IMG/VR virus record: IMGVR_UViG_2654587792_000005
Coordinates: 1-7,936 of that record
DNA length: 7,936 nucleotides
Source of the DNA: a virus
Taxonomy: Duplodnaviria > Heunggongvirae > Uroviricota > Caudoviricetes
Reading direction: 5' to 3' (one strand)
Both the position numbers and the translations under genes were made by a program. The notes beneath the pieces were generated by a model. The model was not told the DNA's origin, made no database searches, and saw nothing but the letters and a program-made list of their open reading frames with translations. Below are positions 1 through 7,233 of the stretch, one piece after another; the first letter of the stretch is position 1; each line of letters begins with the position of its first letter.

Positions 1-411
1 GCTATCCTCCAGCAGGGAGTGATGGCTAACGGCGATTTCTTTGATGAACGCCACGGCCTGGACTGGTTACAGAATTATGTGCAGACCAACCTCTATAACC
101 TGCTTTATACCAGCACCACGAAAGTTCCCCAGACTGAAGCCGGTATTACCCGACTGTTATCAAATGTTGAAAAATCACTGGATCAGGCCGTTCAGAATGG
201 ACTGATTGCTCCGGGCGTATGGAACGGGGGCGACCTTGGTCAGTTGTCATCAGGTGACACACTGCCCAAAGGTTATTACGTATACGCCCAGCCGCTGGAT
301 GAACAGGCACAATCAGAACGTGAAGCCCGTAAGGCTCCGGTGATTCAGGCTGCAATAAAACTTGCAGGCGCGGTTCATTACGCTGACGTACAGATTAACG
401 TTGTTCGCTAA
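1..411 (+). CDS. Contractile tail sheath protein, C-terminal part (5-prime end lies upstream of the window)
   Basis: The frame is open from nt 1 ([15 protein letters not shown]...), so the GTG at 19 and ATG at 22 are probably internal codons. Stop TAA 409-411. It lies immediately upstream of the tube, chaperone-with-frameshift and tape measure genes, the canonical sheath position. The call rests on synteny, not on a recognised catalytic motif. Confidence 0.55.
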
Positions 412-421
412 GGGGAAGTGA

Positions 422-862
422 ATGTCTACCTATTCTTTTATGGATGTCACTGCGACGCTGACCGGCCCGACCGGTTCGATTGACCTCGGGTACGGTTCTG
501 CAAGTTCTGAAGAGGGGATTGTGGTTGCGATGGGCGGTCCTAAAAACACCATGACCATCGGTGCTGATGGTGAAGTGATGCACAGCCTCCATGCAGATAA
601 AAGCGGGACGATTACCGTTAACCTTCTGAAGACATCACCGACAAATAAAAAATTGTCGCTGGCGTATAACGCACAGAGCCAGTCTTCTGCCACATGGGGG
701 AATAACGTTATCGTGATCCGCAACAAGGTCAGCGGCGACATCATCACGGCACGCAGTGTTGCGTTCCAGAAACAACCGGATAATGCCAACGCTAAAACCG
801 GTAATACGATGCCGTGGGTGTTTGACTGCGGCAAGATTGACCAGGTTCTCGGGGAGTTTTAA
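422..862 (+). CDS. Tail tube protein (146 aa)
   Basis: ATG 422 follows a purine-rich RBS (AGGGGAAG, 411-418) and the sheath stop by 10 nt. Size and position directly upstream of the chaperone gene are typical of a myovirus tube protein. Stop TAA 860-862. Confidence 0.6.
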   Translation: MSTYSFMDVTATLTGPTGSIDLGYGSASSEEGIVVAMGGPKNTMTIGADGEVMHSLHADKSGTITVNLLKTSPTNKKLSLAYNAQSQSSATWGNNVIVIRNKVSGDIITARSVAFQKQPDNANAKTGNTMPWVFDCGKIDQVLGEF

Positions 863-865
863 TAC

Positions 866-1321
866 ATGGAATTCGAAATCAAAGGCGTGAAATATCGCGT
901 GGCAAAACTCAGCGTTTTTGACCAGCTGAAAGTGACCCGCAAACTTCTGCCGGTGGTACTGGCGGGAATGATGTCAGATTTCGGGAGCATTCGCTCCCGT
1001 TTGCCTGCTGACGGCAAAATCGACACCGTGAAATTCGAGCAGTTAAAACCGGTGTTTGAAACCATGCTCCCGCGTATCGCTGAGGAACTGTCTTCCCTGA
1101 CCGAAGATGACACCGATGCGATTATTCATCCCTGTCTTGCGGTGGTATCGCGGCGTCATATGGACGGATGGGTGCCGGTATTTACCCAGGGCGAACTGAT
1201 GTTTGATGATATTGACCTGCTGGTCATGCTGCAGCTGGTGGCGCGGGTGGTCGCCGATTCGCTGGGAAATTTTTTGCCTACACCCCTTACCAGCACGACG
1301 CAGAGCCTGCAACAGGGCTGA
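866..1321 (+). CDS. Tail assembly chaperone, short in-frame product (151 aa; gpG / P2 gpE analogue)
   Basis: ATG 866 has GGGGAG (851-856) 9 nt upstream. It is a small protein directly upstream of the tape measure gene and carries a slippery site near its 3-prime end. Stop TGA 1319-1321. Confidence 0.7.
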   Translation: MEFEIKGVKYRVAKLSVFDQLKVTRKLLPVVLAGMMSDFGSIRSRLPADGKIDTVKFEQLKPVFETMLPRIAEELSSLTEDDTDAIIHPCLAVVSRRHMDGWVPVFTQGELMFDDIDLLVMLQLVARVVADSLGNFLPTPLTSTTQSLQQG

Positions 1322-1518
1322 CGTTTAACAGCCTGCCGGACGGGCTGTCCTACCTTCTCAATCCGGTTGACGCCGGGTTAATTCCTTATACAGCACTTAA
1401 AGATGGCTCTGTCGATTTGTACGACATTGCTCTCTTGAATGACCATCTGGCGGTAAAAGCGGATAACCAGCGGCGCATTGAGAAATGGAGAGAGGATAAT
1501 GAACGCCGAGACTATTAA
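866..1518 (+). CDS. Tail assembly chaperone, -1 frameshift fusion product (about 217 aa; gpGT / P2 gpE+E-prime analogue)
   Basis: After the slippery run at 1264-1276 the -1 frame has no stop for 82 codons (FFAYTPYQHDAEPATGLTFNSLPDGLSYLLNPVDAGLIPYTALKDGSVDLYDIALLNDHLAVKADNQRRIEKWREDNERRDY), ending at TAA 1516-1518, 17 nt past the tape measure ATG. I translated this by hand; the extension has no start codon, so the ORF track cannot show it. Confidence 0.6.
1264..1276 (+). other. Programmed -1 ribosomal frameshift slippery site (GGGAAAT overlapping TTTTTTG)
   Basis: Sequence GGGAAATTTTTTG. In the chaperone frame the codons are GGA AAT TTT TTG, so both G_GGA_AAT (1264-1270) and T_TTT_TTG (1270-1276) fit the X_XXY_YYZ heptamer rule. 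Phage lambda G/GT uses the closely related G_GGA_AAG. Confidence 0.55.
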
Positions 1519-3487
1519 AGATTTCCTCGTCTCGCTTGGCTTCAGTGTGGATGATGCAGGAGCGAAAAAATTCGGTTCTGTCCTCGCCGGTACAACTGCA
1601 AATGTCATCAAAATGGGGCTGGCCGTCGAAGGAGCGGCGCTGTCCGTGGTGGCCTTCACGGCTAAGATCGCCTCCGGCCTGGATAATCTTTACTGGGCGT
1701 CACAGCGCACCGGCGCGACAGTCCAGGGAATTCAGTCTATTGGCTATGCGGTTTCGCAGGTTGGCGGCAGCGTGGACGCTGCGCGATCTTCTCTGGAAAA
1801 CCTCTCCCGGTTTATTCGTAATAATCCCGGGGCGGAGGGATTTCTGAATCGTCTGGGGGTACAGACACGGGATGCCAGCGGTAACATGCGTGACATGGCC
1901 GCTATTTTTACAGGGGTAGGCCAGAAGCTCAGCGACATGCCGTATTACCGTGCTAACCAGTATGCGCAGATGCTGGGCATTGACGAAAATACCCTGTTGG
2001 CTATGCGTCGCGGTGTGGGTGGCTTCTCCGGGCAGTACAGCGCAATGGCGAAAGCTATCGGCTTCAATGCTGACGAGGCGGCCAGAAGCTCCAACAAATT
2101 TATGACCTCCCTGCGTGAGTTTGGCGCGATGGCAGGCATGGCCCGTGACAAAATCGGCTCTAATCTTGCGGGTGGGCTTGCGGGTTCGCTGGACACACTG
2201 CGCCGCCATATCCTGGACAACTTCCCGCGTATCGAGCAGACCCTGACGAAAGCCATAAAAGGCATTCTGGCGCTCGGGGATATTATCGGGCGGCTGTTCT
2301 TCAGACTGATTGAGGGGACATCAGGCCTCATCACCTGGTGGCAATCGCTGGATAAGCAAACGCGGGAGTTGATCTCGCTGTTTGGCGCACTGACGATTGC
2401 GCTGCGCATTCTGAACAGTACGTTCTGGATGTCGCCGATTGGCCTCATTACCGCGCTGGCGGCGGGGATTGCCCTCCTGTGGGAGGACTATCAGACCTGG
2501 AAGGAAGGCGGCGACAGCCTGATTGACTGGGGCAAGTGGAAACCGGAGGTTGATGCCGCGCTGAAGATGGTTCGTGACCTTAAAACGACCGTTAACGACC
2601 TGGTGAAAGCGCTGGCGAAACTGCTCAATATTGACCCCAAATCATGGTCCCTGAAGTGGGATTTCAGCAACTTCATCGACCAGATGGGCGAATTCAGCAA
2701 AATGCTGAACATGATCGCCGACCTGCTCAACGCTATCAAAGATGGCCGCTGGGCTGATGCCGTCAGCATCGGCAAACAGATACTTAATCAGGGCAGCGAA
2801 AATCCGTCAGCGATGCCGATGGTTACAGACAGCGCTAACAGTACTGCCGACTGGATTAAAGAGCACTGGGGATTTGATCCCCGCAGTGTGGGCCGGACGG
2901 TACGCGGCTGGTTTGGTGATGATGAGCCGGAACAACATGCACAGGCTACGAAACGAGGAGAACGGAATAACAATCCGGGAAACCTTAATTTTGCTGGTCA
3001 GGCAGGGGCTTCTCTTGAACGCCCGGGCGGGCGATTTGCCAGATTTGAAACTGCCTTTGATGGATTACGGGCTCTTGCTCGTCAGTTAATGCTGTACGCC
3101 GGACGGGGAATAAACAGTGTGGAGAAAATTATCTCTACCTGGGCACCTGCGTCTGATAATAACAACACAACCGCGTATATCAGGGCTGTATCGCAACGAC
3201 TGGGAGTGGATCCCCGGGCTGCCCTGAATATGAGCGATCCGCAAACCATGTCAGCATTGATGAGCAGCATTATCCAGCATGAGAATGGAAGAAATATCTA
3301 TTCTCGGGAGCTGATTAATAAGGCTGCCGTGGCGGGAATTAGTGGCAAAGTGACAGAGGTTAACCAGCAAAATACCTACCACATTTACGGTGGCGGAGAT
3401 CCGCACGCTGTCGGTAATGAGGTTGCACGTCGGCAACAGTCTGCAAATGCTCAGGTCATGCGAAGTAATCAGGTGAGGGTGGGTTAG
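1499..3487 (+). CDS. Tail tape measure protein (663 aa from ATG 1499; the ORF track begins at in-frame TTG 1478)
   Basis: Longest gene in the window, immediately after the chaperone/frameshift gene. ATG 1499 is preceded by GGAGAGAGG (1487-1495). The N-terminal half is Ala/Gly-rich. There is a long hydrophobic segment (LISLFGALTIALRILNSTFWMSPIGLITALAAGIALLW) and a distinct C-terminal module (NNNPGNLNF...IIQHENG). Stop TAG 3485-3487. Confidence 0.8.
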   Translation: MNAETIKDFLVSLGFSVDDAGAKKFGSVLAGTTANVIKMGLAVEGAALSVVAFTAKIASGLDNLYWASQRTGATVQGIQSIGYAVSQVGGSVDAARSSLENLSRFIRNNPGAEGFLNRLGVQTRDASGNMRDMAAIFTGVGQKLSDMPYYRANQYAQMLGIDENTLLAMRRGVGGFSGQYSAMAKAIGFNADEAARSSNKFMTSLREFGAMAGMARDKIGSNLAGGLAGSLDTLRRHILDNFPRIEQTLTKAIKGILALGDIIGRLFFRLIEGTSGLITWWQSLDKQTRELISLFGALTIALRILNSTFWMSPIGLITALAAGIALLWEDYQTWKEGGDSLIDWGKWKPEVDAALKMVRDLKTTVNDLVKALAKLLNIDPKSWSLKWDFSNFIDQMGEFSKMLNMIADLLNAIKDGRWADAVSIGKQILNQGSENPSAMPMVTDSANSTADWIKEHWGFDPRSVGRTVRGWFGDDEPEQHAQATKRGERNNNPGNLNFAGQAGASLERPGGRFARFETAFDGLRALARQLMLYAGRGINSVEKIISTWAPASDNNNTTAYIRAVSQRLGVDPRAALNMSDPQTMSALMSSIIQHENGRNIYSRELINKAAVAGISGKVTEVNQQNTYHIYGGGDPHAVGNEVARRQQSANAQVMRSNQVRVG

Positions 3488-4378: not shown

Positions 4379-5443
4379 ATGACACAGAACTGGATGAGAC
4401 ATTTCGAGCTGCAGCTTGTGGACGGGAACGGTCAGGGAATTGAGCTAAGTGATTTTAAAGTCACCTTTACGATCGACTGGTTCAACATCAGCAGCGCGTC
4501 CCGGGTAGGGACTATCAAAATTTATAACCTCTCGGCAGATACTGTGAACCGAATTACCGGGCAGGAGTTTTCGAAAGTGCGTCTGATTGCGGGTTACGAC
4601 GGTATCGCGCCGGAGGTGTCGGCAAGCGATGTCGGGACCGTGCGGGAGGTTGATGCGGCGGACGTGGGCCAGAGTGATGGCCGCAACTACGGACTGATTT
4701 TCAGCGGTGAAATTCGCTACTCGGTCACAGGAAAAGACAGCCCGGTTGATTCCTACGTCCTGATTCAGGCAGCAGATACTGATCTGGCTTTTGCCACCAG
4801 TATAACCTCACAGACGCTGGCTGCCGGTTACACGGTCGCTGATGTAAACCGTGCGCTGATGAAAGACTTCGAAGCCAAAGGCGCGACCGAAGGCCTGACG
4901 CCTGAAATGCCTGCTACTGTATTCCCCCGGGGGCGGGTACTCTTTGGCATGACGCGGCATCTAATGGATAACGTAGCCGGACAATGTGGCGCAACATGGC
5001 AATTCGTGGACGGTCAGCGCCAGATGGTGGCGAATAACGAATATGTTCACGAAGCGATTGTGCTCAACAGCGCTACCGGGCTTATTGGAATGCCGCAGCA
5101 GACTATCGGTAACGGCGTAAACGTCCGCGCGCTTATTAATCCGAACATCCGGGTTAACGGGCTCATTCAGCTGGATCAGGCTTCCGTCTATCGTACCGCG
5201 TTGTCGAACAACGATATTGCGATGGCTGGTGGTCAGATCACCGACCAGAACACGGACGGAAATATTACGCTAAGCGGCACCACATCGCAGCCTGCCAGCA
5301 TCGCAACGGATGGCGTTTATATTGTTCGCGGGATTATGTACACTGGCGACACAAGGGGCCAGGCGTGGTACATGGATATGATGTGCGAAGCGCGTGGGGC
5401 TAGCGATATACCTAGCCAGTTGGCAATGCAACGGGGAGCGTAA
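4379..5443 (+). CDS. Baseplate hub-like protein (354 aa; assigned by size and synteny)
   Basis: ATG 4379 lies 2 nt after the previous stop, with ACGGAG upstream. A roughly 350-aa protein between the tape measure and spike genes is where gp27/gpD-type hub proteins sit in contractile tails. I did not recognise a specific motif. Stop TAA 5441-5443. Confidence 0.45.
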   Translation: MTQNWMRHFELQLVDGNGQGIELSDFKVTFTIDWFNISSASRVGTIKIYNLSADTVNRITGQEFSKVRLIAGYDGIAPEVSASDVGTVREVDAADVGQSDGRNYGLIFSGEIRYSVTGKDSPVDSYVLIQAADTDLAFATSITSQTLAAGYTVADVNRALMKDFEAKGATEGLTPEMPATVFPRGRVLFGMTRHLMDNVAGQCGATWQFVDGQRQMVANNEYVHEAIVLNSATGLIGMPQQTIGNGVNVRALINPNIRVNGLIQLDQASVYRTALSNNDIAMAGGQITDQNTDGNITLSGTTSQPASIATDGVYIVRGIMYTGDTRGQAWYMDMMCEARGASDIPSQLAMQRGA

Positions 5444-5445
5444 GC

Positions 5446-5907
5446 GTGAAAAAACAGGTGATAGTTGCAATAACGATGCTGATTTCTACGACTTCTTTTG
5501 CCGAACCAGGTAAGTTTGAATTTAAAGCAGCCGACCTGATGGAGCAGCAAAAGTTTACGGAATGGCAACATTACGCATCTGTGAAGCCTTTTTTCTCAAT
5601 GAATGGGCGACGTTTTACAATGACCTTAGATGATTTCGCTGACATCATCAGGAACACATTCCAGCAATGTAATGATTTGGACGCATACACCAACCGCAAA
5701 GGAACCCGGGATTCTTGTCAGGAATATATTTACAACGGTATGAAAGAGTGGATAAAACTGTCAAAGGATCCTAGTGTTAGTCCGCAAGCATGGAAAATTG
5801 GTGCTAGATATGCTTTCAACACAAATAATCCTGTCCCCGGTAGTAATGTGATTGATTTTAATGGTTGGGCTGGTGGTATTCGTGTTGCAAAATCAAAAGG
5901 GTTCTAA
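5446..5907 (+). CDS. Secreted or periplasmic protein of unknown function with N-terminal signal peptide (153 aa); accessory (moron) gene
   Basis: GTG 5446 has GGGGAG (5433-5438) 7 nt upstream and lies 2 nt after the hub stop. The N-terminus MKKQVIVAITMLISTTSFA-EP has two lysines, a hydrophobic core and a probable SFA cleavage site. The mature part has two Cys (QQCNDLD, DSCQEY). Hand-counted GC is about 38% at 5461-5520, versus about 58% at 2401-2460 in the tape measure gene. Confidence 0.6.
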   Translation: MKKQVIVAITMLISTTSFAEPGKFEFKAADLMEQQKFTEWQHYASVKPFFSMNGRRFTMTLDDFADIIRNTFQQCNDLDAYTNRKGTRDSCQEYIYNGMKEWIKLSKDPSVSPQAWKIGARYAFNTNNPVPGSNVIDFNGWAGGIRVAKSKGF

Positions 5908-6022
5908 TGGCACTAGAGTAGAAAATCCTCGATTTTTCAGGGAAATGGGCTCGTAGTAAAATCTAGAGATTCATTTTCTAAGGGGGATTTTGTGCGAAAC
6001 TACTAAGTAGACCAGATGTGGA

Positions 6023-6052
6023 TTGACTAAACTGTATACGCGAACATAAAAT
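6023..6052 (+). promoter_or_regulatory. Candidate sigma70-type promoter for the two-gene operon
   Basis: TTGACT (6023-6028), an 18-nt spacer, then TAAAAT (6047-6052), in the AT-rich 173-bp intergenic region about 30 nt upstream of GTG 6081. Sequence match only. Confidence 0.4.
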
Positions 6053-6080
6053 CTGACAAAAAATAAGTAGTGAGTGAACT

Positions 6081-6851
6081 GTGGCGAGACCAAAACTAAA
6101 AGCCGAAGAGCGTTTTGACCAGTTGATTAATGTAATCAACAGTGGGGAGCCACTTGATATGTGGACTTTCCGAGAAGTGGTTTCGGAGTATGGTTCTAAT
6201 CATACTCCTATGGCTGAAGCACTTGTAGCGTTGGCTTATATAGCTAAGGGTGAGGTGCTCTTTGGGATTGAGTCGCTTGAGGTCATCCTTCCACATGCTG
6301 ACGTTAATTTCGCACGGATCTTTTGTAAACTTCTCGAGCGATTTTCTCTACTCGAAAAACTGGATTACTACATATATTCTTTAGCTGATAAGTTTCCTAC
6401 AAAGTGGTTTACTTACAAAGCTGGCGGCGTTGCGTACTTGGTAGGGAAACTATCGAAATGCGTGGAGTATTTAGGGCGTCATTGCAAAATGTTATCCGAA
6501 GAAGAGCATAGGGATGACGCAGAAACCTTCTTGCAGGAGGTAATTAACGATATGGATGAAGCTTATAAAAATTCAGGGTGCTCTTCAGAGCAATATAGGC
6601 AAGTTGCCTTGGCTGTGCACAGAGTTATGGCTGAATTCCCGTCAACTGAATATCGCGCGGACATTAACGGGGCGTCTGGTGGAACGTATTTGGTTGAGGT
6701 GGTTAAGGCGTCTCCAGAGCGGGTTGTTGCAATGAATATGCGACTTGCTGATGAAATCTGCTCGATCGATTTGCTTGATGATTGTAACCTGATAGCAAGA
6801 TTTTCCGTTGAAAGAAATGGATTAAAAGAGTGTAAATATGCCTATAACTAG
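6081..6851 (+). CDS. Hypothetical protein, first gene of accessory two-gene operon (256 aa from GTG 6081, or 230 aa from ATG 6159); putative HEPN-like partner or effector
   Basis: Low-GC ORF (about 42% by hand count at 6081-6140). GTG 6081 has a weak RBS, whereas the in-frame ATG at 6159 has GGGGAG (6144-6149) 9 nt upstream, so the true start is uncertain. The C-terminal half contains YRQVALAVH (R173-x6-H180, nt 6597-6620), preceded by the acidic helix DAETFLQEVINDMDEAYKN. The stop TAG 6849-6851 overlaps the next gene by 14 nt. Confidence 0.55.
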   Translation: MARPKLKAEERFDQLINVINSGEPLDMWTFREVVSEYGSNHTPMAEALVALAYIAKGEVLFGIESLEVILPHADVNFARIFCKLLERFSLLEKLDYYIYSLADKFPTKWFTYKAGGVAYLVGKLSKCVEYLGRHCKMLSEEEHRDDAETFLQEVINDMDEAYKNSGCSSEQYRQVALAVHRVMAEFPSTEYRADINGASGGTYLVEVVKASPERVVAMNMRLADEICSIDLLDDCNLIARFSVERNGLKECKYAYN

Positions 6852-7233
6852 TTCTGAGTTTTTGTCTTCGGCCGAACGTTGTTTTGCTGAAGATTGTGAG
6901 ATTGGTTATCGTAATGCTATTTCACGAGCATATTACGCTCTCTACCATGAAATTAAAGATAATCTAACTAGTCTTCCTGCTTATACTCGGGATCATCATG
7001 CCAGCCTTATCTCTTATCTTAAAAATAAGGGAGAAAATAAACTGGAACCCTATGATCCTCGAAGTCTAAAATCTATGGCTTACAAACTTGAGCAACAGAG
7101 GTTAGCTCGGAATGAGGCTGATTATGATTTAAGTAGTTGTGGCATAAATAAAGCAATGGCACAACAATCAATCTTGGAAGTAAAAACAATTTTTTCTCAA
7201 TGGGAACAAATGAAGACTGATGTAGCCGTTTAG
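6838..7233 (+). CDS. Small HEPN-like protein, second gene of accessory two-gene operon (131 aa)
   Basis: ATG 6838 with AAGAG 8 nt upstream, overlapping the upstream gene. The helix SAERCFAEDCEIGYRNAISRAYYALYHEIKD carries R30-x6-H37 (nt 6925-6948). A second His pair follows (DHHASLISYL), then a C-terminal helix QQRLARNEADYD. From memory this resembles canonical HEPN-domain proteins; the domain call is unverified. Stop TAG 7231-7233. Confidence 0.5.
   Translation: MPITSSEFLSSAERCFAEDCEIGYRNAISRAYYALYHEIKDNLTSLPAYTRDHHASLISYLKNKGENKLEPYDPRSLKSMAYKLEQQRLARNEADYDLSSCGINKAMAQQSILEVKTIFSQWEQMKTDVAV

Follow-up and report, generated by a model that had tools for sequence, protein, structure and literature searches.

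A predicted -1 ribosomal frameshift in the tail assembly chaperone gene of an E. coli prophage and its conserved DUF6889 extension

The DNA analyzed here (the window, i.e. the whole stretch of 7,936 nt) belongs to a temperate E. coli prophage whose tail is contractile, the tail type following from the presence of a sheath gene (DUF3383). A programmed -1 ribosomal frameshift at positions 1264-1276 of its tail assembly chaperone gene very probably yields a 217-aa long form of the chaperone, in which the 151-aa zero-frame product is replaced near its C-terminus by a domain of the DUF6889 family. As judged by comparison of homologous loci, the frameshift appears real and strongly conserved and, being already annotated in closely related phages, it is an ordinary one. 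The orthologues in Klebsiella phage Mulock and Burkholderia phage Magia carry such an annotation. The same comparison indicates that DUF6889, usually treated as a separate small protein, would be the frameshift-encoded C-terminal domain of Phage_TAC_15 chaperones.

Results

The features on which the analysis rests are listed below in window coordinates.

19..411, plus strand: tail sheath gene, 3' end (Pfam DUF3383, 2.1e-39; the complete gene is found in locus L001)
422..862, plus strand: tail tube gene, just 5' of the chaperone gene (Pfam KPP10_Orf10, DUF3277, 8.8e-61)
866..1321, plus strand: tail assembly chaperone, zero frame, 151-aa short product, stop TGA 1319-1321 (Phage_TAC_15, PHROG 1688)
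1264..1276, plus strand: slippery run GGGAAATTTTTTG, single occurrence in the window, close to the chaperone gene's 3' end
1264-1270, plus strand: zero-frame heptamer G_GGA_AAT
1267-1273, plus strand: zero-frame heptamer A_AAT_TTT, predicted as the most likely shift site
1270-1276, plus strand: zero-frame heptamer T_TTT_TTG
1273..1518, plus strand: -1 frame extension, stop TAA 1516-1518, with coding periodicity in the -1 frame
1384..1500, plus strand: DUF6889 core, carrying ...YTALKDGSVDLYDIALLNDHLAVKADN... (residues 41-79 of the 1264-1518 translation)
1499..3487, plus strand: tape measure-like gene, 662 aa, ATG 1499 (ORF list; position after the chaperone gene)

The ORF list and Pfam searches gave the order sheath (19-411), tube (422-862), chaperone (866-1321) and tape measure-like gene (1499-3487), with DUF3383 for the sheath, KPP10_Orf10/DUF3277 for the tube and 662 aa for the tape measure-like product. 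The tape measure-like gene showed a weak match, under the cut-off, to Pfam PhageMin_Tail, and annotations of relatives call it “tail length tape measure protein” or “lytic transglycosylase”. The chaperone matched Pfam Phage_TAC_15 (PF21822) over residues 6-139 (4.4e-29, 102 bits against a cut-off of 22) and PHROG 1688, “tail assembly chaperone” (2e-63), and its orthologue is named “phage tail assembly chaperone” by PGAP. It lies between the tube and tape measure genes, the position of G/GT-type genes. A terminator-like hairpin at 1360-1379 was at chance level only.

An earlier note made from the sequence alone had described a double slippery run 43 nt before the chaperone stop. The run is there, but it consists of three overlapping zero-frame X_XXY_YYZ heptamers rather than two, and the gap to the stop is 42 nt (1277-1318), the figure of 43 including the last base of the run. 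In-frame heptamers are otherwise scarce: the genes of the window, 2258 codons in all, contain only seven, and three of these seven are at the slippery run. Reporter data in E. coli place the H_HH.U_UU.Y class among the most efficient heptamers and point to cognate re-pairing in the A site as the main rule for efficiency, and G_GGA_AAU and U_UUU_UUG, which need non-cognate A-site re-pairing, are expected to be poor in this host (PMC4066793). A_AAT_TTT is thus, on its sequence, the most likely of the three to act as the shift site.

No stop interrupts the -1 frame between 1216 and TAA 1516-1518. As claimed before, this gives 82 sense codons from the codon at 1270 (84 if counted from 1264). The ORF ends 17 nt inside the tape measure-like gene, and the anticipated fusion of about 217 aa was computed as exactly 217 aa for each of the three shift registers. 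Only 2.1% of in-gene codons start a -1 open run of at least 82 codons, and the +1 frame shuts two codons past the chaperone stop. In the A_AAT_TTT register the fusion is join(866..1273,1273..1518), the coordinates joining at 1273 because T1273 is read twice; it comprises chaperone body residues 1-136 and an 81-residue tail with DUF6889. The predicted junction peptide of the fusion is ...SLGNFFAYTPYQ..., the fusion reading ...GNFFAY..., with ...SLGNFFAYTPYQHDAEPATGLTFNSLPDGLSYLLNPVDAGLIPYTALK predicted for the A_AAT_TTT or the upstream register and ...SLGNFLAYTPYQ... for the T_TTT_TTG register. The -1 translation matched Pfam DUF6889 (PF21829) at 73.3 bits (cut-off 23.9; E 1.3e-20), covering positions 2-40 of the 40-position profile, and the DUF6889 region matched PHROG 4364 (2e-23). 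An AlphaFold2 model of the fusion built from a chaperone-only alignment had a mean pLDDT of 60, with values <40 across most of the -1 part, so that structural support for a tube-binding domain was not obtained; Foldseek of this model against the PDB gave nothing at E <= 0.001 and a PDB sequence search gave no match.

Conservation was examined in 17 phage or prophage loci and 60 bacterial genome loci of 26-99% identity, with a slip-site census of 75 loci covering 37 distinct contexts. A Phe codon preceded by T (T_TTY) occurs at the matching place in all 75 loci, X_XXT_TTY in 60 and T_TTT_TTN in 61; at least one canonical heptamer is found in 70, and the T_TTY tetramer alone in the other five. 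In reporter assays, a slippery tetramer worked only with a strong stimulator. The identical 13-mer is present in 78 of 80 close relatives and the remaining two retain AGGAAATTTTTTG; viral-contig relatives at 93-99% identity served as a check of 13-mer invariance and brought no added diversity. When the 151-aa protein was searched against phage genomes by tblastn, all 40 matches ended at residue 136, the position of the slip site. In the homologous loci the -1 frame stays open for 55-75 codons beyond the zero-frame stop and encodes a common LPxGED...MND...ADN domain, the only exception being L136, a degraded prophage in which the normal extension has been lost, and the +1 frame is usually shut within 2-8 codons. 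This extension, recognizable as DUF6889, extends from Escherichia to prophages of Burkholderia, Acinetobacter, Pseudomonas and Desulfovibrio. Conservation of the slippery site and of an uninterrupted -1 frame, one of the checks named in the earlier note, therefore holds from 99% down to 26% identity, and of the computational tests proposed there only the search for a stimulatory structure was unfavorable.

Selection on the site was visible in 55 unique enterobacterial genes, which all use one and the same codon for Asn135 (AAT), for Phe136 (TTT) and for Leu137 (TTG), with a synonymous entropy of 0, compared with about 1-1.9 at other conserved codons such as Phe106 and Phe113 (0.99). A conserved slippery sequence thus lies within the overlap, as in G/GT-type genes. 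Selection also shows in the -1 frame: nucleotide variation is greatest at the third position of -1 codons, the overlap included, with entropies at codon positions 1/2/3 of 0.69/0.53/1.32 downstream of the overlap and 0.95/0.86/1.35 inside it. Amino-acid identity within the overlap is 0.58 in the -1 frame vs 0.34 in the zero frame.

In signals of the dnaX and IS3/IS911 type, a stable conserved hairpin or pseudoknot follows the heptamer by about 5-9 nt. The downstream stem-loop or pseudoknot suggested by the earlier note could not be detected in 1277-1380, nor was one conserved in the enterobacterial clade. Single-sequence folds of four window stretches were no better than shuffles (z -0.33 to +0.31 for three of them and -0.90 for 1277-1380), RNAalifold on 24 enterobacterial sequences gave 0 consensus pairs, the 24 enterobacterial homologues had a mean folding z of +0.25 with 0/24 positive in a reverse-complement hexamer test, and Rfam returned no match. 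With no such structure detected in the window, the efficiency of the shift could be very low. A structure of this type was found only in distant relatives, where a covarying hairpin begins 6 nt after the Phe codon in 8 of 20 loci, with five arm sequences (null mean 0.33, maximum 3). It was revealed only by per-sequence folding together with the reverse-complement test; RNAalifold gave 0 pairs on the 20 distant relatives, owing to loops of varying length and to 3' arms that MAFFT failed to align.

Upstream stimulators of the Shine-Dalgarno (SD) type were considered as conserved elements 6-17 nt upstream of the motif. GGGTGG at 1245-1250 lies 16-19 nt upstream, and, as read from synonymous variation in the 55 genes, its codons vary normally (synonymous entropy 0.8-1.7), so a conserved SD-like element is not evident. 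The upstream nucleotide element GTGGCGCGGGTGGTCGCCGA seemed not to vary among the first few phages and was dropped once its synonymous sites were seen to vary normally across the 55 unique genes.

It is possible, if rather doubtful, that the ancestral signal of this chaperone family was one X_XXT_TTT heptamer with a hairpin 6 nt downstream, and that the enterobacterial clade replaced the hairpin with the triple-heptamer run GGGAAATTTTTTG. The X_XXT_TTT plus hairpin form, with compensatory changes, occurs in phages of Burkholderia, Acinetobacter and Edwardsiella as well as in some MAG prophages. If this history were true, the shift rate would be set by slip-site redundancy and not by RNA structure, and the family would provide a natural evolutionary trade between two components of a -1 frameshift signal.

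Discussion

Among other explanations for these data, transcriptional slippage fares best, although we consider it improbable. RNA polymerase could add an extra U within the T6 run (1270-1275) in some transcripts, which would lead to the same 217-aa fusion and to a protein product indistinguishable from that of a ribosomal shift. The enterobacterial clade conserves the T6 run, and a natural T7 variant of the DNA has exactly this fusion in one frame, which shows that indels readily arise in the run. For slippage, bacterial RNA polymerase normally requires a stretch of about 8-9 or more identical bases, irrespective of phase, but the run here has six T, and distant homologues in which it has only four (CCT TTT ATC, AAT TTT ATT) retain the -1 domain. 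Furthermore, the first T of the run is invariably the third base of the preceding zero-frame codon, and the four T are always in the zero-frame X_XXT_TTT register, a register that matters to tRNAs and not to RNA polymerase; the four-T relatives also have the hairpin at a spacing typical of ribosomal frameshift stimulators.

Expression of the DUF6889 region as an independent small gene, i.e. as a protein of about 54 aa made from CTG 1345 with no frameshift, is more improbable still. A separate ORF is annotated by PGAP and several depositors, and both Pfam and PHROGs keep a stand-alone family. Yet the -1 frame has no ATG, GTG or TTG from 1216 to a TTG at about 1417, which is already inside the domain, so that the second ORF overlaps the first and lacks a start of its own, as in G/GT-type genes; 48 of 54 homologues likewise have no such codon between the slip site and the conserved motif. 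The starts given in annotations are spread over six alignment positions and cut into the conserved LPDG motif, no promoter-like site was found in 800-1700, selection on the -1 frame is present in the overlap upstream of any such start, and the slippery codons are frozen at synonymous sites. The last reading, that the open -1 frame has no function, being a relic or an effect of sequence composition, and that the 151-aa protein is the one product of importance, could draw on the lack of a detectable stimulatory element in the enterobacterial clade but is the least credible, and is already contradicted by the conservation data, namely a domain kept from Escherichia to Desulfovibrio prophages with -1 codon periodicity, the strength of the Pfam DUF6889 match and the closed +1 frame.

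Under the preferred explanation of a programmed -1 ribosomal frameshift, most ribosomes would stop at TGA 1319 and release the 151-aa short form, and we infer that a minority slip back by one base within 1264-1276. At A_AAT_TTT, tRNA-Asn would occupy the P site and tRNA-Phe the A site, the latter re-pairing cognately from UUU to UUU, with G_GGA_AAT and T_TTT_TTG as possible minor or back-up registers. Shifted ribosomes would then follow the -1 frame to TAA 1516, giving the 217-aa long form. In this clade the shift would take place with neither a detectable downstream RNA structure nor an evident conserved SD-like element upstream. Lambda gpG/gpGT and P2 E/E+E', taken as analogues, suggest that both forms may coat the tape measure protein, and that the -1 domain of the rare long form may recruit the tube protein so that tail polymerization starts, neither chaperone form staying in the virion. 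The tube protein encoded at 422-862 is the presumed partner of the -1 domain, an analogy taken from the binding of lambda gpT to gpV (PMC5009743).

The main value of these observations is for annotation. As the earlier note anticipated, ORF callers miss the long product: PGAP/RefSeq gives a separate 54-aa “DUF6889 family protein” starting on CTG, phrog_4364 is labelled “unknown function”, Pfam DUF6889 also treats the -1 part as a separate small protein, and older nr entries call it “NTP pyrophosphohydrolase”. With DUF6889 assigned to the chaperone, the family gains a testable function, recruiting the tube protein, and the annotation of several hundred E. coli prophages would be corrected, related DNA being present in 388 of 5426 complete genomes. 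Relatives with and without the hairpin also form a small, convenient comparative system for frameshift efficiency. The current understanding of tail assembly and recoding is unchanged.

Comparison with known systems

The G/GT-type class of recoded tail assembly chaperone genes was reportedly defined by Xu, Hendrix and Duda in 2004, and lambda gpG/gpGT is said to have been studied by Levin in 1993 and by Xu, Hendrix and Duda in 2004, 2013 and 2014. In this type both products are made, the long one as a minority, and both are needed for tail assembly and absent from virions. The earlier note had assigned the locus to this type, which stands for mechanism and gene order but not for sequence homology to lambda gpG/gpT: hhalign of the chaperone alignment with gpG gave a probability of 1.9% over 21 N-terminal columns, and that of DUF6889 with gpT gave 0.1%. 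The locus thus appears, from its sequence, to work like G/GT while being outside the gpG/gpT sequence families, and DUF6889 is indicated as what corresponds to the lambda T domain in tails built with a sheath of the DUF3383 type and a tube of the DUF3277 type. In lambda, too, the long form has an extra C-terminal domain and the signal begins with G_GGA_AA, but the tail is non-contractile and the heptamer, G_GGA_AAG, involves tRNA-Lys instead of tRNA-Phe. The lambda shift and its product ratio of about 30:1 were established by experiment (PMC5009743), whereas the shift in the window is predicted from sequence. As the tail here is contractile, P2 E/E+E' is as close an analogy as lambda G/GT.

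A conserved -1 frameshift with a GTTTTT motif has been described in chaperone genes of Vandenendeviridae and Andersonviridae in the Pseudomonas phage Adele paper, which covers Pakpunavirus and its relatives (PMC12846349). Compared by description, these phages are likewise myoviruses, the tail-tube Pfam family being named after Pseudomonas phage KPP10. Their short chaperone ORF has a T-rich slippery motif at its 3' end, the -1 frame continues without interruption, and annotations routinely mistake the downstream ORF for a hypothetical gene. They differ in being lytic, in belonging to other families and in having GTTTTT instead of AAATTTTTTG.

Burkholderia phage Magia (NC_070954) shares the protein families and gene order of the window and has an annotated joined CDS, and a programmed translational frameshift in its tail assembly chaperone gene is stated in the Magia paper (PMC7883833). 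Its proteins are only about 26-33% identical, and there is just one heptamer, C_CCT_TTT, which contains four T and is followed 6 nt downstream by the start of an 8-bp GC-rich hairpin (GGGCUGCU/AGCAGCCC) that the window does not have. Klebsiella phage Mulock (MN098327, CPT_Mulock_014/015) is a free temperate Klebsiella phage with a different zero-frame tail, and the paper on its genome makes no mention of the frameshift. Its chaperone is an orthologue, with 63% identity over the chaperone body, encoded in a gene order that matches the window (sheath, tube, chaperone, tape measure) and with an identical GGGAAATTTTTTG. The -1 extension of Mulock has the length past the zero-frame stop that is seen in the window (62 codons) and encodes the same domain, and the joined CDS is given in GenBank as a predicted “tape measure chaperone frameshift product”.

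Organization of the predicted frameshift site

The 13-mer GGGAAATTTTTTG has a single occurrence in the window (1264-1276); the zero-frame codons of the tail assembly chaperone gene there read CTG GGA AAT TTT TTG. The earlier note had located a double slippery run here; the location is right, but three overlapping X_XXY_YYZ heptamers were counted, all in the correct phase.

Features of the site in the window (strand as given)
866-1321: chaperone ORF, 151 aa, stop TGA 1319-1321
1264: heptamer G_GGA_AAT
1267-1273: heptamer A_AAT_TTT
1270: heptamer T_TTT_TTG

No stop interrupts the -1 frame between 1216 and TAA 1516-1518, a span with 82 sense codons counted from 1270; the figures first given for it were correct within one nucleotide. 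The predicted fusion, estimated then at roughly 217 aa, is 217 aa from each of the shift registers (CDS join(866..1273,1273..1518) for A_AAT_TTT), with the junction ...GNFFAY... for the two upstream registers and ...GNFLAY... for T_TTT_TTG. Across their 2258 codons the window's genes contain just 7 in-phase heptamers, 3 of the 7 at the slip site, and -1 open runs of at least 82 codons begin at only 2.1% of in-gene codons. The +1 frame is closed two codons past the chaperone stop.

Conservation of the slip site and choice of register

In a set of 55 unique chaperone genes from enterobacteria, synonymous entropy was 0 at Asn135 (AAT only), Phe136 (TTT only) and Leu137 (invariant TTG despite six Leu codons), with values of about 1-1.9 at other conserved codons of the same alignment and 0.99 at each of Phe106 and Phe113. 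The identical 13-mer was found in 78 of 80 close IMG/VR relatives. A wider census covered 75 loci with 37 distinct contexts.

Slip-site census
T_TTY (Phe codon preceded by T): 75/75 loci
Phe-in-A-site heptamer (A_AAT_TTT, C_CCT_TTT/C, G_GGT_TTT): 60/75 loci
Phe-in-P-site heptamer (T_TTT_TTN): 61/75 loci
At least one canonical heptamer: 70/75 loci

Judged by natural variants, G_GGA_AAT is dispensable, because CTC/CTT GGA AAT and AGG AAA versions, which lack it, retain the -1 ORF. The -1 frames of Limnobaculum, Arsenophonus and Erwinia phyllosphaerae contain a stop codon precisely at the position of the window's AAA, so that -1 reading there starts only at the T run.

In E. coli reporters the most efficient motifs permit cognate A-site re-pairing, with H_HH.U_UU.Y belonging to the best classes and U_UU.Y ranking second among tetramer classes (Sharma et al. 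2014, PMC4066793). Taken together with slip-site conservation, these data point to A_AAT_TTT (1267-1273) as the window's most likely shift site; T_TTT_TTG may serve as a second register, and G_GGA_AAT is the least likely since the AAU to AAA shift is non-cognate for tRNA-Asn.

At 1896-1909 of L159, a homologous locus on a Logan SRR23924998 contig, the run reads GGGAAATTTTTTTG, with T7 replacing T6 and chaperone and DUF6889 in a single frame; its product is the 213-aa protein P0001 (a cluster of 16 member sequences; predicted fusion junction ...SLGNFFAYTPYQ...). This T7 could be a homopolymer sequencing or assembly error, or a real mutant making the long form only. Two loci carry Flavobacteriia host labels: L107 ('Chryseobacterium sp. 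18061'; chaperone 71% identical to the E. coli one, run GGAAATTTTTTG) and L008 (Elizabethkingia phage EKP1; 53% identical, full GGGAAATTTTTTG). These labels look doubtful, unless transfer was recent.

Stimulatory RNA structure

The stem-loop or pseudoknot to be looked for in 1277-1340 was not borne out: folds of 1277-1340, 1277-1380, 1225-1276 and 1225-1345 showed no extra stability over dinucleotide shuffles (z -0.90 to +0.31). RNAalifold predicted zero pairs for 24 diverse enterobacterial homologues, the 60-nt downstream segments of 24 enterobacterial homologues had a mean z of +0.25, and an Rfam search of the window gave no match. An upstream stretch, seemingly invariant in the first phages compared, was rejected as a conserved element, showing normal synonymous variation in a larger set.

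Distant relatives have four T only and a single heptamer, and in many of them the 5' arm of a hairpin starts at +7, i.e. 6 nt after the Phe codon. The +7..+12 hexamer had an exact reverse complement in +16..+60 at 8/20 distant loci, with five arm sequences (GGGCUG/CAGCCC, GGACUG/CAGUCC, GGUCUG/CAGACC, GGGUUG/CAACCC and GAGCUG/CAGCUC). In 1000 shuffle trials the count averaged 0.33 and never exceeded 3, and the enterobacterial clade that includes the window gave 0/24. The hairpins (L004, L014, L017, L012, L015, L148, L154 and L010) are GC-rich, with compensatory changes between lineages. A hairpin at the typical spacing of -1 stimulators supports ribosomal frameshifting in the chaperone family, and suggests that the window's clade may have exchanged it for a longer slippery run. 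Transcriptional slippage on T6 would yield the same protein, but is disfavoured, as in the relatives with four T the heptamers always lie in the zero-frame register and a hairpin is present at ribosomal spacing.

Coding by the -1 frame

The -1 translation matches Pfam DUF6889 (73.3 bits vs a cut-off of 23.9, E 1.3e-20) and PHROG 4364. When 50,697 phage records were searched by tblastn with the 151-aa protein, all 40 matches stopped at the Phe codon of the slip site (residue 136), so conservation does not extend to the final 15 zero-frame residues. The comparison proposed in the earlier note covered 17 phage/prophage loci and 60 from bacterial assemblies (one genome per species), and showed slippery site and open -1 frame to be conserved. 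In all loci except L136 the -1 frame continues for 55-75 codons beyond the zero-frame stop, with the shared domain LPxGED...L.DG..DL.DIA.MND.L.V.ADN; the +1 frame usually meets a stop after 2-8 codons.

L136 (Izhakiella australiensis) is a degraded prophage that has undergone a large deletion. From about 1850 its -1 ORF leaves DUF6889 mid-domain and continues for 241 codons unrelated to the normal extension (baseplate protein-like by eye only), a break indicating that the deletion took the tape measure and neighbouring genes. The window's own -1 ORF ends ...NERRDY (1507-1518), three codons longer than the ...NER of most relatives (L001, a homologous locus, 13504-13506); 11/80 close relatives have the longer form.

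For 54 unique enterobacterial sequences, the entropy of nucleotides at positions 1/2/3 of -1 codons was 0.69/0.53/1.32 downstream of the chaperone stop and 0.95/0.86/1.35 within the overlap, indicating that selection tracks the -1 frame, overlap included. Over the 12 codons past the slip site, mean pairwise identity was 0.58 (-1 frame) vs 0.34 (zero frame).

RefSeq gives the -1 region its own 54-aa entry, a 'DUF6889 family protein' starting at CTG 1345 (window coordinates), as independent initiation would have it. This is disfavoured by selection on the -1 frame already within the overlap, and a gene of its own is very unlikely because start codons are mostly absent (no ATG/GTG/TTG between slip site and conserved domain in 48/54 unique enterobacterial sequences) and annotated starts inconsistent (six different alignment positions, some within the conserved motif). 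Database proteins for the region are few, with 26 clusters among 5.8 billion. A non-functional relic is excluded by conservation of the -1 domain across Proteobacteria and beyond.

Many nr entries call small ORFs of this region (window 1345-1518; P0122-P0145) 'NTP pyrophosphohydrolase', a name that no family scan supports. The present evidence marks DUF6889, phrog_4364 and these entries as the frameshift-encoded C-terminal domain of the chaperone family.

Genomic context

E. coli APEC-O117H42 carries a prophage with 99% identity to the window, and related DNA is present in 388/5426 complete E. coli genomes, chromosomal every time. Its gene order is that of a contractile-tailed phage tail module.

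Tail module in the window
Sheath: DUF3383
Tube: KPP10_Orf10/DUF3277
Chaperone: Phage_TAC_15 (4.4e-29), PHROG 1688
Tape measure-like gene: 662 aa, after the chaperone
Baseplate genes: after the tape measure-like gene

Downstream of a baseplate hub-like gene (4379-5443) and ahead of the spike gene (from about 7296), three ORFs at 5446-7233 form an island of 41-43% GC vs 50-58% elsewhere in the window. One encodes 153 aa with a signal-peptide-like N-terminus; the others (256 aa, phrog_17809; 131 aa, phrog_5176) share a 14-nt overlap. Similarity of the 131-aa protein to HEPN is weak and sub-threshold (Pfam E 0.0023; PADLOC HEPN_IX 0.003). Island content differs between E. coli prophages, E2348/69 for example having a 342-nt ORF in place of the 462-nt ORF. 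The island may be a moron, toxin-antitoxin pair or defence cargo.

Comparison with known systems

The orthologue in Klebsiella phage Mulock is 63% identical over the chaperone body, has an identical GGGAAATTTTTTG, and appears in GenBank as a joined CDS named 'tape measure chaperone frameshift product'; Burkholderia phage Magia is annotated likewise, with the frameshift stated in the accompanying paper (PMC7883833). For Pakpunavirus-like and Moogle-like myoviruses, a 2025 paper used the same grounds to argue that their chaperones share a conserved -1 frameshift with a GTTTTT motif (PMC12846349). This is a textbook recoding event, annotated before in orthologues with the same signal; the remaining value is mostly annotation, with a modest comparative point in the hairpin-containing vs hairpin-free versions of the signal.

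The reading as G/GT-type recoding is upheld by the conserved slip site, the conserved -1 domain and the tail gene order. Ribosomes would shift by -1, and probably only seldom. By analogy with lambda gpG/gpGT, short and long forms would coat the tape measure protein, and the DUF6889 domain may recruit the tube protein; in lambda the T domain attaches to the major tail protein, with a ratio of ~30:1 required (PMC5009743). An AlphaFold2 model of the fusion (mean pLDDT 60, -1 part mostly <40) gave no structural support and no Foldseek match, and no sequence homology to lambda gpG or gpT was detectable. The locus thus appears to function like lambda G/GT, but with families, Phage_TAC_15 and DUF6889, that are not those of lambda.
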